The notes under the pieces: model-generated
The model's input: only the letters and a program-made list of their open reading frames with translations
Databases searched by the model: none
Told to the model about the DNA's origin: nothing
Made by a program: the position numbers and the translations under genes
Shown here: positions 2,497 to 60,913 of the stretch, piece after piece
How positions within the stretch are numbered: position 1 is the stretch's first letter
Layout: each line of letters opens with the position of its first letter
Assembly: GCA_009729775.1 (NCBI GenBank)
Contig: GCA_009729775.1_4081.1
Direction: 5' to 3' (one strand)
From: Escherichia coli
GTDB lineage: Bacteria; Pseudomonadota; Gammaproteobacteria; Enterobacterales; Enterobacteriaceae
DNA: 64,000 nt

Positions 2497-3068
2497 AACT
2501 TGACGGGATTTGTTGAGGACTATTACATCCCCCCGCAGGGGAATGAAGGTAATAAAAAAGAGACAATTAAGTCTCTCTTGACGATGATGGCATCGGATAT
2601 TATCGAATTGCGAATTTCTCAAATTTTGGACGGATCTTTCTTGTACCAAAATTTAGAGAGCGAAAGCGGGTTGCTCGGTTTCTCTCTATCGCAGTCATAT
2701 GCAACGGTCGCTGGTCTTTTCATCAACAGCACTCAGTACTAACTCTATTCGATCAAAGTAGTACTTGTTCTCAAATTTTGGACGCAACTTTCTTGTAAAA
2801 ATTGCGTCCGCTATCCTTGAACTCCCTTAGCAAATCTGGTAAGGTGCGAACCTTATACATCTATCTAGGAACTCTCTGTATGCTTATCGGAGTTCTTTAT
2901 ACAGCCGTGTCGCCGTGATTCGTGGTCTTACATCGTGTTTGTTTAAATGCCAGTACTCTAACAGGTTTCTTCTGCTGTTCGCTACAACGGTAAAGCTCAT
3001 CTATCCTTTACATTTTCAAGAGAAGTAGGTTCTCAGTGTCCATTTTTCAATGTCCGTTGTCATTTTCT
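2497..3068 (-). ncRNA. candidate large structured noncoding RNA, copy A (paralog of 58627..59162); identity unknown
   Basis: ~690 nt gap without credible ORF in an otherwise gene-dense genome; local GC ~50% vs ~33% background; blocks conserved with copy B (CCCCGCAGGGG, GAAAGCGGGTTGCTC.GTTTCTCTCTATCGC, GCAACGGTCG..GGTCTT, TTTGGACGCAACT, GGTAAGGTGCGA.CCTTATA, AGGAACTCTCT...GGAGTTCTTTATACAGCCG, TGCTGTTCG); conserved stems with variable loops; TGATATAAT extended -10 on minus strand at 3075-3083; strand and ends approximate. Confidence 0.45.
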
Positions 3069-3074
3069 ATATAC

Positions 3075-3103
3075 ATTATATCATTGGAACATATAATGTC
3101 CCA
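3075..3103 (-). promoter_or_regulatory. extended -10 promoter (TGaTATAAT) with upstream imperfect palindrome TGGGACAT-N3-ATGTTCCA, reading into ncRNA copy A
   Basis: plus-strand attatatca at 3075-3083 = TGATATAAT on minus; palindrome 3085-3103 resembles the one at 28306-28326. Confidence 0.4.
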
Positions 3104-3871: not shown

Positions 3872-3899
3872 AAAAAAAAGGACTTGAATACTCAAGTCC
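3872..3899 (-). terminator. intrinsic terminator-like hairpin (GGACTTGA/TCAAGTCC) plus U8 on minus strand
   Basis: perfect 8-bp stem, A8 run on plus 3872-3879; immediately downstream of stop of 3913..4524. Confidence 0.5.
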
Positions 3900-3912
3900 C
3901 TATAATATCATA

Positions 3913-4524
3913 TCAATCATGTTTATTCAATTTCTTCTGTTCTTTTTTCAAAGCTTTCATATGACGACCAAACTCTCGAACATGCCATAGATGATCAGTT
4001 TCCCATAATTCTTGACGTAACCTACGTTCTTCTAGTAGTTTCGACTTGTCAATGTTATTTTTCTTTTTTTGTACATTAAAGAAATTATTCATATGTTCTT
4101 GGAGAAGATTACGACCTTTAACTTTCTCAAGAAACTCATCAACTGTTTCAGTTTTATTCGAACGTAGTTGATTACATCTGGAGCACATAGTATTAAAGTT
4201 TGACTCTAAATCAGGTCCACCCTTAGATGCCAGATGATTATGGTCAACTGTCATTAAAACTTCATAAAGACCACATACAGCATATACATTTAAATGTGGT
4301 TTACCATATACTGGATCAGAACATAATGAACGTTCAATGCGTACTTCAGTAGCTTCAATCCCACATGCCACGCATTTTGGATTCTTAATAAATGTAAGAA
4401 CTTTTTGTGGGAAATATCGAAAAGTAATACCATTTAAAGTGTAGCGTTTCATCTTAGTACTTCGTTGATTTAATTCGTCAAGAAGTGATAATTTGGTCGT
4501 ATAGTAAACATGATATTTGTTCAT
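3913..4524 (-). CDS. HNH endonuclease (homing-endonuclease-like), ~203 aa
   Basis: motif CVACG...TVDHNHLASKGGPDLESNFNTMCSRCNQLRS (HNH with flanking Cys pairs); start moved to ATG 4522-4524 (AAGGA RBS) to avoid 44-nt overlap. Confidence 0.7.
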   Translation of the reverse strand: MNKYHVYYTTKLSLLDELNQRSTKMKRYTLNGITFRYFPQKVLTFIKNPKCVACGIEATEVRIERSLCSDPVYGKPHLNVYAVCGLYEVLMTVDHNHLASKGGPDLESNFNTMCSRCNQLRSNKTETVDEFLEKVKGRNLLQEHMNNFFNVQKKKNNIDKSKLLEERRLRQELWETDHLWHVREFGRHMKALKKEQKKLNKHD

Positions 4525-5258: not shown

Positions 5259-5678
5259 TTACAACATTTTTTGAATATGTTCTGCTAGTTCATACAGCTT
5301 AGTTTCATTATTCTCGAACTTTTCATCAACTTGAACATTGAATTTTTCTTCTAGTTCCATTACCATTTCAATCCAATCAAGCCAATCAAAATGGAATTTT
5401 TCTTCGACTTCCAATTTAGTAAGATTGAAGTTCGCTGATACATCATTCTCTGATGTATCACAATAACGAGTAGTGATGAATTTGACAATTTCTTTTTCAA
5501 CATCGTTTAATTCACGAGTTTGATATTCGGGCTGAAGATACCACCACTCTCCCTTATTAATAGATTCCAATTCTTGTTTGATTTCATGCATTACTTTATA
5601 ACGGTCAGTACTTTTATGAATAGAATTGACTTCTTGATTCAATACATGTAGTGCATTTTTAATACGTTCATTTAACAT
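5259..5678 (-). CDS. hypothetical protein (139 aa)
   Basis: ORF track; AAGGTG RBS upstream of ATG 5676-5678. Confidence 0.6.
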   Translation of the reverse strand: MLNERIKNALHVLNQEVNSIHKSTDRYKVMHEIKQELESINKGEWWYLQPEYQTRELNDVEKEIVKFITTRYCDTSENDVSANFNLTKLEVEEKFHFDWLDWIEMVMELEEKFNVQVDEKFENNETKLYELAEHIQKML

Positions 5679-5689
5679 TTTATCACCTT

Positions 5690-5722
5690 ATAAAAAAAGA
5701 GAACTCCATATGAAGTTCTCTA
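5690..5722 (-). terminator. intrinsic terminator-like hairpin (AGAGAACT/AGTTCTCT) plus U7, overlapping the transcription start of the promoter at 5723-5751
   Basis: stem-loop 5697-5722, A7 on plus 5690-5696; downstream of stop of 5753..8542. Confidence 0.5.
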
Positions 5723-5751
5723 ATTATACATAATTACTTTTTCTATGTCAA
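5723..5751 (-). promoter_or_regulatory. sigma70-type promoter, consensus TTGACA-17-TATAAT, for 5259..5678
   Basis: minus-strand TTGACA (plus 5746-5751) and TATAAT (plus 5723-5728) with 17-nt spacer. Confidence 0.55.
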
Positions 5752-5752
5752 G

Positions 5753-8542
5753 TTATAAATCACGGAAACGATTTGGTGTGTTTAAACGATACATTGAGTA
5801 CAATCCCAATCCACGCATAATCTCACCTGCCCAGAAACCAAAAAACATACCATTATCAGTACCTTCTCTGACTGCTGGACTCCATGAACCATTCATTGGA
5901 GAACCTGGACTTACAATAACATAGTTCTTTTGAAGTTCGAGAACTAAGTTATCAGCGAGTGTTGTTAGACCTTCTATTTTACATCCAGCCAATCCAGCAG
6001 CACAAGCCCCAGCTAACCACAACCCACACATATGACCTGTAAAGTCCCAATCTGGACCTTCAACTGTGCCATCTTTATTGAAGATTGTTGGTGAACGACC
6101 ATCATTATCTTTTTGAAATTGAATTAAAAAGTGAATCCAATTCTCACAAAATTCAACAAGATCTGCTGGTGGTTCAATTCCTCTCTCTGCGAGTTCTTGC
6201 CATGCTCTGGCAGCCCCAAAGAACGCACGTGGTTCATACCCACTCCATGCTTGATCACCCCAATGTAGCATAGTAAATGTATCTGGTTCACCATATTTTA
6301 AGTTATCCCAGCGGTTCCAAACATATGCTTGTGCACATGGACCAACAGTACCGAATTGTTGAGTAAACCATGTTTGAGAATCTTTCATAAAGCTTAACAT
6401 GTTGCCTAAACGTGTGTTATCAACTGGTTGGTCTTTAAAACAATATATCACTGGATACTGATAACCAGGATAAGGCAAACCACGCCAACCTGAATACTGA
6501 TTCGCATACGGGTCAGTGATGTTAGAAAATGGTATTGTTCCTGGAGTGTAATGCAATGAGTTTAACAAATAATCTTTGATTACACAATCCCCTAACTGTG
6601 CAGTATAAGGTGATTCACCTGCAATTGTTATTGAAAATGTCATGGTATAGTCATCACCGTCAGCATCCGTATATAATTCTGGAATGTCATTAATACAATA
6701 CCAATCAATTATTGCAGCAACGCCATCTACTGGGGTTGTATCAGGTAAAATAGTAATATCTTCTAGCTCACTATAAACTGGTGCATCTGGTCTTGGGTCA
6801 GAACTTGGATGATTTGGCTGATACCCAGATAAACGTAATGTATCAGAACTTAGTGTGATAGTAGTCCATTCCCCGTGTGTTGCAGGAATCATCCACCACC
6901 ATCTCCAACCATTATCATCTATAATTCGTATATTATAATCATCTTCATATGAACGATATGTGAAAGATTTAACTTCAGACTTATTTGTTGCTAATAACCA
7001 AAATCCAATAACAGCACCATCATCTTCACCACAAACCAACTGATTAATTGTATCGCGTCTTGTGATTAATATATCAGTACTATATAACATTTCGGACGTA
7101 GCTGCACCATAAGGAACAACAATTCTACTATCAGCAATTATATAAGGGGAACCATCTGCTTTCTTTTCTCTAACAAATGCACTTAACGGTGTTAATGAAT
7201 GTGTGATATTTTGGTCTTTACTTTCTGGTAAGCCGCAACGATAACGAACAACATCATGGTCATTTTTTGTTTTTGACAATTCCAGTACTGGTTTAAATGA
7301 TAACGGTTTACCATCATCGCACACGCCACCATAGTCAACTAGCAATTTTGAATCAGCATTTACCCTGAACCAAATAGCTTGTTGCTCCATAGTACTCTGT
7401 GCACTTTGGTCTTGTCTGATAGTAATGTATCCTAACGAATTTCTACCAAACTTAGCAATAGCATCACTTGGATAAAAATATTCATAGGAAATACCATCAG
7501 TGAATGGTGTGGTTACAATTGTACTTTGTCTGAAAAATTTATCTCTGGAGTCGATATCACCATAAGCATAGCATGTGAGTAGTGAACATTTCCAACCCAA
7601 ATAATGTTTTCTTTCTTTAGTTATTTTATATAACAAATACGAAGCATCACTAAACCATAATTCTGCATCTGATGCGTTATCAGCAAATTCTAAATCAATT
7701 GGAACATGAAGTGGGCGGTTGTGTTGCATTTCATTTCGTTGAATTATTACACCACCATATTCTACTGGTTGACGATTAGCAAAATTTAATTTATATACAC
7801 CATTAATTGTTGTATTCTTTAATTGAACAGTTCCTTTTTCAGATTCGTCAAAACCTTCTGCTAAAATATTACCATCCCAGTCGATTTTTCTACCCATGAA
7901 ATCAATAATCCAGTCAACATCATATTGTTCACCTGGTGTATCCCAATCAACACTACCATCTGGTAATAAAGCTTTTACTGACGCATTTATTTGGTTCCAT
8001 GCTAAAGCACCTTTGAATGCAAATGTCACTTTATCCAAGAACTGACCATAATATGGTGCACCATGTGGTATTTTGCATTGACCATTAGTAAATGTAAATT
8101 CTACTCCCTTGAAACCACCATGTGTGGGCCAGCCATCATCAGCTAAAGGCCAGTTAGCCAATATAGGTTCTTTTGCATTAACTATCCAGTTACATTGTAG
8201 CGGTGTAGGTGGATCTGGTAATTCACGTCCAGCATAAAAGTACTGATGATATGCGTCCCAATACCACTTTGCCTTATCTAAAAACAATGGATCATTTGTA
8301 GCCAGATATGCATAAATGTATCCTAAAATTAATAGACTTTGACCTTCTGTTGTCCCGTCACCGTTTGGTTGACCTTCCATTGCAGAATAGTTAATAAAAT
8401 GGCGGTTGTTCGCCAAAACACCCTGATTGTTCACCACATAATGCTGTACTGTTGGATCTATAGTATCACCAGTATTTCTTTCAATAAATTTGTGATGCCC
8501 ATAAAGAAGTTGTACAATATTATCAATATTATTGTTTAACAT
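5753..8542 (-). CDS. large protein (929 aa), possibly tail-associated with glycosidase-like C-terminal region
   Basis: long ORF ending the tail-fiber-containing transcription unit; Trp/Gly-rich, C-terminal segment reminiscent of alpha/alpha-toroid glycoside hydrolases (weak, by eye). Confidence 0.65.
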   Translation of the reverse strand: MLNNNIDNIVQLLYGHHKFIERNTGDTIDPTVQHYVVNNQGVLANNRHFINYSAMEGQPNGDGTTEGQSLLILGYIYAYLATNDPLFLDKAKWYWDAYHQYFYAGRELPDPPTPLQCNWIVNAKEPILANWPLADDGWPTHGGFKGVEFTFTNGQCKIPHGAPYYGQFLDKVTFAFKGALAWNQINASVKALLPDGSVDWDTPGEQYDVDWIIDFMGRKIDWDGNILAEGFDESEKGTVQLKNTTINGVYKLNFANRQPVEYGGVIIQRNEMQHNRPLHVPIDLEFADNASDAELWFSDASYLLYKITKERKHYLGWKCSLLTCYAYGDIDSRDKFFRQSTIVTTPFTDGISYEYFYPSDAIAKFGRNSLGYITIRQDQSAQSTMEQQAIWFRVNADSKLLVDYGGVCDDGKPLSFKPVLELSKTKNDHDVVRYRCGLPESKDQNITHSLTPLSAFVREKKADGSPYIIADSRIVVPYGAATSEMLYSTDILITRRDTINQLVCGEDDGAVIGFWLLATNKSEVKSFTYRSYEDDYNIRIIDDNGWRWWWMIPATHGEWTTITLSSDTLRLSGYQPNHPSSDPRPDAPVYSELEDITILPDTTPVDGVAAIIDWYCINDIPELYTDADGDDYTMTFSITIAGESPYTAQLGDCVIKDYLLNSLHYTPGTIPFSNITDPYANQYSGWRGLPYPGYQYPVIYCFKDQPVDNTRLGNMLSFMKDSQTWFTQQFGTVGPCAQAYVWNRWDNLKYGEPDTFTMLHWGDQAWSGYEPRAFFGAARAWQELAERGIEPPADLVEFCENWIHFLIQFQKDNDGRSPTIFNKDGTVEGPDWDFTGHMCGLWLAGACAAGLAGCKIEGLTTLADNLVLELQKNYVIVSPGSPMNGSWSPAVREGTDNGMFFGFWAGEIMRGLGLYSMYRLNTPNRFRDL

Positions 8543-58626: not shown

Positions 58627-59162
58627 ATATTGACGGGGTTTGCTTGAGCATATTTCATCCCCCCGCAGGGGAAAGAACAAAAAAATTTGACGCTGGTGGC
58701 CTTCACATAGTTCATATCACGAATTCTCTTACGAGACGAAAGCGGGTTGCTCTGTTTCTCTCTATCGCGGTTCTTGTAGCAACGGTCGTCGGTCTTAAAC
58801 ATCCCGACACATAATACAAATACCATATGACCAGTACTTGTATTTGATTTCACAAAATTTGGACGCAACTATATTGTATAATTCCGACCGCATATTTCTT
58901 ATGAAATCTCCCTTAGATAATTGGTAAGGTGCGATCCTTATATGTCTATCGAGGAACTCTCTTTATCCTATTGGAGTTCTTTATACAGCCGCATTGCCGT
59001 GAGTGGTTCAAACTATGCCATCATCTAACGGGTTTCATCTGCTGTTCGTACTGAAAGGACTACTCATCTACCCTCTACATTTTCGAGTGGATTAGGCTTT
59101 TAATCATTTCCTTATGGGAACCTTTCAGGATTAAAAAAGGTGACTAACATATTATGTTGTCA
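58627..59162 (-). ncRNA. candidate large structured noncoding RNA, copy B (paralog of 2497..3068); identity unknown
   Basis: ~600 nt without credible ORF; GC-enriched; same conserved blocks and stems as copy A; TGATATAAT on minus strand at 59169-59177 immediately upstream; strand and ends approximate. Confidence 0.45.
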
Positions 59163-59166
59163 CCTT
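59131..59166 (-). terminator. strong hairpin (AAGGTGACTAACAT/ATGTTGTCACCTT) plus U6; overlaps the transcription start of the promoter at 59169-59177
   Basis: ~13-bp stem with A6 on plus 59133-59138; downstream of stop of 59195..60082. Confidence 0.5.
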
Positions 59167-59168
59167 AT

Positions 59169-59177
59169 ATTATATCA
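59169..59177 (-). promoter_or_regulatory. extended -10 promoter element TGATATAAT reading into ncRNA copy B
   Basis: plus attatatca 59169-59177. Confidence 0.4.
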
Positions 59178-59194
59178 TTAACTTATCATTTGTC

Positions 59195-60082
59195 TCAGTT
59201 ATATTCGGTTTTTTCTGTGAAATTTGTTAGTATATCAACACTAAAACTTCGAATAACCTCAATCTTGCTTGGCATGAAACGGTGTTTATTTTTAATATAC
59301 AACTCATCATCTTCAATAAAAGATGTAAAAATGAATGCCATATCTTCACGTGGAATTTGTAAAATATCACACATTTCATTTGCCGATGCTACTGGTGAAT
59401 CATTATAGTACTGAGAGTATGCACTAGATTGGCGACCGATTATAATAGAATTTCTGATTAGAAAATTACTACAGTACTGAAAATCTTTGTAGTACTTTTC
59501 AATAATGTACGGCATAAGTGCTTCTTTCACGTCTTCATAACCATTAGTACTATCAATTGCTATACAGTAATCTTCACGTTCTTTTTTCTCATGATGGTAA
59601 TCATAAACATACTCAAAGAATGAATTTTTATTTAATGAATCATTTAAACCAACTGACCCACTATAGTATGATTTTCTATCATTCATTCGATCATCTGGGC
59701 ATGATGCATACATAGAAGTGTCATGTGATGATGTACCAATATAAATTTTCTTAGTAATATGATTATACGCTATGTAATCATAATCTTGAACTCCAGTCAG
59801 CATTAACTGGAACATTAAATCATCAGGAACATCAATTAACGGGTACTCAAACTTCGAATATCTACTGCGGCAGAAGTTCTTTTCAAATGCTCGGTATGCG
59901 ATAAAATCTTTTAGATTTTTACAAGATTCATGTTCATGAGCACTACTGCTACGTACATTGACATTAGTCGATGTGCAATATCCATCCGAATCTTCGGTGA
60001 AGTTACCAGCATAATCCTTATTGTAGTCAACGATTAGATAAAGTTTCATACATCTCCAGACAAAAAAAGGACGAGATAACAA
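59195..60082 (-). CDS. hypothetical protein (295 aa)
   Basis: ORF track. Confidence 0.55.
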   Translation of the reverse strand: MLSRPFFVWRCMKLYLIVDYNKDYAGNFTEDSDGYCTSTNVNVRSSSAHEHESCKNLKDFIAYRAFEKNFCRSRYSKFEYPLIDVPDDLMFQLMLTGVQDYDYIAYNHITKKIYIGTSSHDTSMYASCPDDRMNDRKSYYSGSVGLNDSLNKNSFFEYVYDYHHEKKEREDYCIAIDSTNGYEDVKEALMPYIIEKYYKDFQYCSNFLIRNSIIIGRQSSAYSQYYNDSPVASANEMCDILQIPREDMAFIFTSFIEDDELYIKNKHRFMPSKIEVIRSFSVDILTNFTEKTEYN

Positions 60083-60842: not shown

Positions 60843-60913
60843 CTATATCTCCGTTATCAAAAAAAGATGTGAACATTATATCACAAGAATCTAATATGTT
60901 CACATTATTTTCA

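Follow-up and report, generated by a model that had tools for sequence, protein, structure and literature searches.

A promoter abutting a terminator-type hairpin upstream of a structured RNA gene in a Rak2-like jumbo phage

How can a gene depend on a promoter whose predicted start site lies within a terminator? The question is raised by the region upstream of a large structured RNA gene (copy B) in a stretch of 64,000 nucleotides, here called the window. A preliminary description of the locus had proposed an insulation device, in which transcripts arriving from the upstream gene form a complete terminator and those initiated at the promoter lack it, so that expression of the RNA would depend on its own promoter. 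The window derives from a 121Q-type Escherichia jumbo phage (Asteriusvirus, Rak2-like, ~350 kb), of which it shows the reverse strand, and KM507819 is 99.9% identical to copy B and its flanks. The 121Q record is not identical to the window in the promoter region of another RNA copy (copy A) and in the region 5640-5840 (97.5% identity over 5640-5840); in a comparison of two regions, the metagenome contigs OEQX01000020, OEQX01000033 and OEQX01000005 matched exactly upstream of copies A and B. All genome-wide counts given below were obtained from the 121Q record joined to the window and describe the 121Q-type genome, not the exact source of the window. The elements at copy B are the following.

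59195..60049, minus strand: upstream protein gene (open reading frame 59195..60082), homologue of 121Q gp415, phrog_15199, without Pfam match
59197-59195, minus strand: stop codon TGA of the gp415 homologue, overlapping the -35-like box
59191..59196, minus strand: -35-like hexamer GAGACA, of the class GGGACA/GAGACA/GGAACA
59169..59177, minus strand: extended -10 element TGATATAAT, with TATAAT at 59174-59169 and TG at 59177-59176
59161..59163, minus strand: predicted transcription start, 6th to 8th base after the -10, from the rules for E. coli RNA polymerase
59137..59166, minus strand: terminator-type hairpin AAGGTGACAACAT-AAT-ATGTT(A)GTCACCTT, 13 bp with a 3-nt loop and a bulged A at 59145
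59133..59138, minus strand: U-run T6 (T6-T10 in orthologues), present in every orthologue
58627..59129, minus strand: body of structured RNA copy B, a ~535-nt gene and one of four copies
59128-59121, minus strand: 5' strand of helix P1, CUGAAAGG, the first conserved helix
58671-58659, minus strand: C4/G6 hairpin of copy B
58638-58630, minus strand: 3' motif CCCCGTCAA of copy B

The order of stop codon, -10, hairpin, U-run and conserved element given in the preliminary description was confirmed in every position, and the -35-like box, which it had missed, can be added. Together these elements fill the 68 nt between the gp415 stop codon and the RNA body.

The case for the promoter is comparative. 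GAGACA is separated from the TATAAT of TGATATAAT by a 16-nt spacer that ends in TG, and only 2 nt lie between the -10 and the hairpin. The element TGATATAAT is invariant in 7 of 7 Asteriusvirus orthologues and the spacer changes in sequence while its length is constant; the box together with TGATATAAT is retained upstream of copy B in six other Asteriusviruses. Moreover, a box of the GGGACA/GAGACA/GGAACA type, followed after 16-17 nt by TGnTATAAT, precedes every RNA copy examined, that is, all 4 copies of 121Q and those of Yersinia fHe-Yen9-04, Serratia BF, Cronobacter GAP32 and metagenomic relatives, and the 7th base 3' of the -10 is nearly always a purine among them. The context upstream of the box reads tttttGGGACA in other RNA copies, and at copy B it is the A-rich coding sequence CAGAAAAAACCGAATATAAC, the 3' end of a coding region. 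Copy A has the simpler arrangement:

3075..3102, minus strand: promoter of copy A, GGGACA-N-TGATATAAT, with no terminator 3' of the -10

A hairpin GGGACATTATATGTTCC that lies before the copy A promoter was considered and is read as incidental; it is not conserved in the 121Q record.

The same combination of boxes defines a class of promoter-like sites with a strong strand bias. Across the genome, G[GA][GA]A[CT][AG]-N13-14-TGnTA[TC]AAT is matched 23 times by the coding strand and a single time by the opposite strand, and the class precedes the genes for primase, exonuclease, topoisomerase, nudix and sigma-factor proteins. Its members in the window are:

59196-59169, 53112-53085, 49226-49199, 45342-45315, 43093-43065, 28323-28295 and 3102-3075, all minus strand: GGGACA/GAGACA/GGAACA-N13-14-TGnTATAAT

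At 28323-28295, the -35 box forms the 5' arm of a hairpin, GGGACAttaTGTCCC. Considering its conservation in paralogues and orthologues and its membership of this strand-biased class, the sequence comparison identifies the copy B promoter as genuine. In phages CBB and GAP32, promoters termed 'divergent RpoD-like' have been predicted with MEME; these have a TATA-type -10 and a -35 region TGAAACG and precede DNA-metabolism genes (Buttimer et al. 2017, PMC5259590). The RNA promoters described here resemble them in reading tGGAACA, tGAAACA or tGGGACA, and the two classes probably correspond, although the CBB/GAP32 prediction was tied neither to terminators nor to RNA genes (Buttimer et al. 2017, PMC5259590). 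121Q encodes sigma-like proteins, and recognition of the class may involve a sigma factor of the phage or a polymerase that the phage has modified; such an enzyme could use a different start-site spacing, which is a point against the insulation model.

The hairpin has the anatomy of an intrinsic terminator, with a G+C-rich stem, a loop in the range of 3-8 nt and at least 5 adjoining U residues. It folds with -13.9 kcal/mol (z = -5.9 versus shuffles) and is annotated as an ARNold terminator in the G17 record; an automated terminator scan of the window overlooked it, probably on account of the bulged A in the stem. All orthologues have a 9-13-bp stem located 2-3 nt 3' of the -10 and followed by T6-T10, with compensatory changes: a C-G pair has become U-A in JNE01 and the inner stem is re-paired in UE-S1. 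In phage A4, A-U is replaced by G-C and G-C by A-U at the 4th and 5th bases after the -10. This covariation was read from folds of the individual sequences and not from the alignment (A2), in which MAFFT misaligns the 3' arm of A4. E. coli RNA polymerase starts 6-10 bases after the -10, with a preference for a purine that follows a pyrimidine, which at copy B would place the start within the hairpin's 5' arm. No orthologue departs from T 59162 and G 59161. The pairs at the 4th and 5th base lie upstream of any plausible start and thus form only in transcripts that come from upstream, so that their covariation is the signature to be expected of a terminator of the upstream gene. The proposal that read-through transcripts would form the full terminator is strengthened by these compensatory pairs. 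Every other copy in the family alignment has its helix P1 only 3-20 nt beyond the predicted start, which makes the hairpin with its U-run a ~30-nt insertion specific to copy B; the other RNA copies either have the ordinary order, terminator and then promoter, or have no terminator, and this counts against a need for insulation.

Copy B is not the sole instance of such a layout. The second site of the preliminary description, a consensus promoter followed by a hairpin and U7, proved correct as well, and two unlisted cassettes were found in the window:

5691..5751, minus strand: second cassette, TTGACA at 5751-5746, 17 nt, TATAAT at 5728-5723, 1 nt, 10-bp hairpin at 5721-5698, T7
3872..3930, minus strand: third cassette, TTGAAT-17-TGaTATTAT abutting a hairpin at 3901-3878, then T7, GGAG and ATG 3860
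60859..60905, minus strand: cassette in another register, with TGTGATATAAT in the loop and 3' arm of the hairpin ATGTGAACAT...ATGTTCACAT, then T7

The second of these occupies the 74-nt gap between a gene for a 929-aa tail protein (stop at 5755-5753) and an acyl-carrier-like gene, the ribosome-binding site and ATG (5678) of which lie downstream.

In the 121Q-type genome as a whole, a promoter-like site ends 0-3 nt before the hairpin at 7 of the 130 strong terminators, where the other 197 offsets predict 0.65 (Poisson p ~5e-6) and 0.37 are expected from dinucleotide shuffling of the 45 nt before the hairpin, none of 2000 shuffles reaching 7. A perfect TTGACA is found in three of these seven promoter-first cassettes. 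There are no promoter-like sites at offsets 4-15 before the 130 terminators, a distance from which the entire terminator would be included in the promoter transcript. Complete terminators close behind a promoter number two (offsets 16 and 28), and a further group of sites, at offsets -33 to -35, carries the -35 box within the stem. The latter register was also observed outside the window, at 101-113 kb of the 121Q record, where a repeated terminator AAGGGTTGACTTCGGTCAGCCCTT occurs in both orientations with a TTGAC -35 box in its stem, followed by tttgcTATAAT.

These counts bear on the possibility that the layout is due to chance, a TATAAT-like word having arisen in the A+T-rich flank of an ordinary terminator and the RNA being produced from another promoter or by processing. 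In fact, -10-like hexamers are ~3-fold enriched in the A+T-rich 12 nt that precede terminators, and one of the seven cases, at 83287 of the record, is flanked by convergent genes and is unlikely to be a promoter. The hexamer enrichment is confounded by A+T-richness and was set aside in favour of counts of full promoters with offset and shuffle controls. By that measure, matches are more than 10-fold enriched over local and shuffled controls. Moreover, the copy B -10 is not only invariant in orthologues but common to all paralogues, and no other promoter candidate is present between the copy B U-run and helix P1. The chance reading, to which we attach a very small probability, is largely refuted.

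The cassettes also behave as units in evolution. The cassette at 5751 is kept in A4 and JNE01, at about 75-76% flank identity, and persists behind a different upstream gene in UE-S1 and slurp01; likewise, an unrelated gene ends upstream of copy B in JNE01 and A4 and the cassette is kept. Since upstream genes are exchanged while the cassette and the downstream unit stay, the cassettes appear to mark recombination boundaries. In some Asteriusviruses unrelated sequence replaces the upstream genes (at 59200-59260 and 5760-5800 of the window), with cassette and downstream unit in place.

What remains of the hairpin in a transcript that starts at the promoter bears on the insulation model, and here the preliminary description went too far. 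It had stated that promoter transcripts of copy B lack the hairpin, but according to our computation 8-10 of the 13 pairs remain. Starts at 59163, 59162 and 59161 leave 10, 9 and 8 pairs, with -8.4, -5.4 and -5.0 kcal/mol, and place C, CC and ACC, respectively, between the stem and the U-run. Thus, 3-5 basal pairs adjoining the U-run are lost and 1-3 non-U bases intervene; in PBECO4-type orthologues the residual hairpin amounts to -9 to -12.5 kcal/mol. Termination requires a stem that reaches the U-run, and more read-through is therefore to be expected from copy B promoter transcripts; by these folds, the loss of basal pairs should weaken termination and need not abolish it. A sizeable share of the promoter transcripts could still terminate at the residual hairpin, which is a point against insulation. 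The situation is different for other cassettes. At 5721 and 3901, a hairpin of about -12.7 kcal/mol is reduced to a residual -2.6 and -0.6 kcal/mol, and for the five cassettes at 5721, 3901 and 255476, 79459 and 8089 of the record, initiation at the 7th base would leave no more than -3.9 kcal/mol, together with at least 3 non-U bases before the U-run. Promoter transcripts of these five are, according to the folds, effectively without a terminator. The model of clean insulation consequently fits the cassettes at 5721 and 3901 better than copy B, as judged from the predicted energies; the device as first proposed is plausible and has a precedent in the promoter/stem-loop cassettes (PeSLs) of T4-like phages, and its layout is conserved and recurs, but it was overstated for copy B, where 8-10 of 13 pairs stay.

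The residual stem opens the way to a different function, that of a promoter-proximal attenuator. The truncated hairpin and U-run would then still terminate many or most promoter transcripts at ~+25 to +30, and copy B would be throttled, or be controlled through an antitermination factor or through the choice of start base (G 59163 or G 59161). The residual energies (-5 to -8.4 kcal/mol here, -9 to -12.5 in PBECO4, ph0011 and CMSTMSU), the single C between stem and U-run in transcripts from G 59163, the conserved U-runs of 6-10 and the fact that copy B is the sole copy with a hairpin and U-run insertion are all in line with attenuation. Nevertheless, no transcript that starts at position 6 or beyond retains the basal G-C pairs beside the U-run, and the favoured start (T 59162, G 59161) leaves ACC between the stem and the U-run. 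Moreover, the cassettes at 5721, 3901 and 255476 of the record lose nearly the whole stem, as if escape were the selected property, and complete terminators just behind a promoter are rare (2/130, at the offsets given above). Attenuation is on balance unlikely, albeit the strongest of the alternatives.

A further, still less probable possibility is that the hairpin serves twice, by terminating upstream transcription and by providing, through its remnant, a paired 5' end that shields the RNA from decay dependent on the 5' end. It is known that 5'-terminal stem-loops stabilise E. coli RNAs. Starts at 59161-59163 would indeed give a paired 5' nucleotide without overhang, and the spacing of 2-3 nt between the -10 and the stem is fixed across orthologues; however, the other three or four RNA copies do without a 5' hairpin at +1, and the cassettes at 5721 and 3901 retain almost no stem.

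We therefore return to insulation, and consider it reasonably probable, on the basis of sequence and of analogy with PeSLs, that copy B is preceded by a PeSL-like composite cassette that insulates the RNA gene. Transcripts of the upstream gene would carry the complete 13-bp hairpin, directly joined to the U-run, and would end at that point, as suggested by the PeSL precedent, by conservation and by the anatomy. From GAGACA-16-TGATATAAT, a promoter of the class that would also serve replication-type genes, RNA polymerase would start in the 5' arm, at about 59161-59163. The resulting transcripts, without the 3-5 basal pairs, would terminate less efficiently and most would presumably read on into the RNA. 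The net effect would be an RNA with a defined 5' end that depends on its own promoter, with no space needed for a separate terminator.

The RNA that would be controlled in this way is in itself a more novel object than the cassette. Its other copies are found at:

2500-3070 of the window, minus strand: copy A
90332-90783 and 326676-327150 of the 121Q record: further copies

The four copies of a 121Q-type genome all lie on one strand, and related phage records with a match have 4-5 places each. The family is ~480-570 nt long, with 4-5 paralogues per genome, and is found in Rak2-like jumbo phages with hosts in at least nine genera (Escherichia, Salmonella, Klebsiella, Erwinia, Yersinia, Serratia, Cronobacter, Pectobacterium and Xanthomonas). 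When 16 members are aligned, 86 pairs in 17 helices are obtained, with 97.7% of cells paired; double changes occur at 52 pairs, whereas shuffles give 28.8 +/- 2.6 and slid controls no more than 19, and the covariation score is 0.447, versus at most 0.079 in slid controls. A comparison with Rfam gave no gathering-score match in the window, and at E up to 10 only chance-level matches for copy B and the GAP32 copy. A conserved 27-nt pattern of the RNA is absent from 185,579 bacterial and archaeal genomes, and was found only on viral contigs, nearly all of them ~350-kb genomes, and on metagenome contigs, several of which are phage-sized assemblies. The family is without annotation in the GenBank records, and we found no literature on it. 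Whether it represents a previously undescribed, phage-restricted class of large, highly structured RNA, whose need for an exact 5' end would account for the copy B cassette, and whether this cassette may also adjust the dose of a single paralogue as an attenuator dependent on the start site, is a proposal on which our judgement is evenly balanced.

The 3' end of the RNA is ambiguous, as most members, including copies A and D, have an internal terminator-like hairpin with U6-7 about 60 nt before it (columns 580-600 of alignment A3; for instance at window ~2577-2552 on the minus strand). Copies B and C are without this internal hairpin. It is followed by a conserved CCCCUGCGGGGGG hairpin and the tail AAUCYCGUCAR, which RNAalifold pairs with internal GAC and GGGA, with one-sided changes only; a CGUCAR-like word also precedes the internal hairpin. 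In addition, a sub-module of ~30 nt (in RNA sense GUACAAGAAAGNUNCGUCCAAAAUUUGAG) is present twice in copy A (2616-2645 and 2768-2797) and once in copy B (58849-58878), and is found at either of two positions in other members, a pattern that suggests the duplication or relocation of a hairpin module. The ncRNAs of the related Pseudomonas phage PA5oct that are supported by RNA-seq were considered as homologues and are not counted as such: they have no motifs in common with the family and a covariance model of the 5' domain finds nothing among them. The 3' hairpin of PA5oct ncRNA004 is matched weakly by nhmmer (E = 0.03); this 3' end (locus L010, 1072-1119) consists of a UUCCUUCCC-AAAC-GGGGAGGAA hairpin followed by CCGCCCGAA, and bears a faint likeness to the 3' domain of the family.

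The cassettes suggest that Rak2-like jumbo phages, like T4-like phages, pack promoters and terminators into overlapping units in several registers. Such units are useful for the annotation of transcription units in poorly annotated 350-kb genomes, and at the boundaries of gene swaps they inform the reading of mosaic evolution. They also offer a natural test case for the extent of stem loss that is needed for an intrinsic terminator to fail, with three cassettes in the window that span residual energies from -0.6 to -8.4 kcal/mol. The larger value is indirect: with the cassette, the promoter of an uncharacterised family of large structured RNAs is pinned down, and with it the probable 5' end.

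A search of the literature on promoter-in-terminator layouts, Asteriusvirus transcriptomics and structured RNAs of jumbo phages yielded nothing specific, and a Mycoplasma transcriptome paper considered as a precedent does not describe the layout. Besides the promoters predicted in CBB and GAP32, three known systems can be compared with the cassettes. They share with intrinsic (Rho-independent) terminators the G+C-rich stem base, the short loop, the adjoining U-run and the A-rich 5' flank, but differ from the canonical form in that the initially transcribed region overlaps the 5' arm, so that two transcript populations meet different hairpins. In E. coli pyrC, pyrD and codBA the start base decides on the formation of a 5' hairpin that hides the ribosome-binding site, and the choice of start senses the nucleotide pools. 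The formation of the hairpin depends on the start base here as well, whereas the contrast is between upstream- and promoter-initiated transcripts and the output is termination.

The closest relatives are the PeSLs, intergenic cassettes in which a stem-loop is combined with an early promoter of the sigma70 type, described in RB49/phi1 (Arbiol et al. 2010, PMC2839356) and extended to T4/PST and KVP40/nt-1 (Comeau et al. 2014, PMC4122927). For RB49/phi1 only, lacZ fusions demonstrated both promoter and terminator activity (Arbiol et al. 2010, PMC2839356). PeSLs have an A+T-rich (UP-like) tract before the -35 and fall into five positional subclasses, one of which has the stem-loop just 3' of the -10; they have been proposed to halt upstream transcription and start transcription anew, and they are repeated, similar to one another, mark the boundaries of insertions, deletions and replacements, and recombine into mini-circles (Arbiol et al. 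2010, PMC2839356; Comeau et al. 2014, PMC4122927). The cassettes described here likewise have a sigma70-like promoter with boxes 17 +/- 1 nt apart (copy B, 5751 and 3930) and a stable stem-loop that abuts or overlaps it, 0-3 nt after the -10 in seven cassettes and in other registers too; they sit where neighbouring genes were swapped, and their AAGG...CCTT-type stems resemble the nt-1 PeSL consensus. They differ in their host, a Rak2-like jumbo phage (Asteriusvirus) and not one of the Tevenvirinae type, in the canonical U-run after the stem, in a stem so long that the start must fall in the 5' arm, and in sharing consensus boxes only and no extended sequence. More specifically, copy B has a promoter of the GGGACA plus extended -10 class instead of the TTGACA consensus, and serves a structured RNA gene without ribosome-binding site or ATG, a respect in which the cassettes at 5751 and 3930 do conform to PeSLs. 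By analogy, therefore, the cassettes are best regarded as examples of the compact promoter/terminator type already described as PeSLs in T4-like phages.
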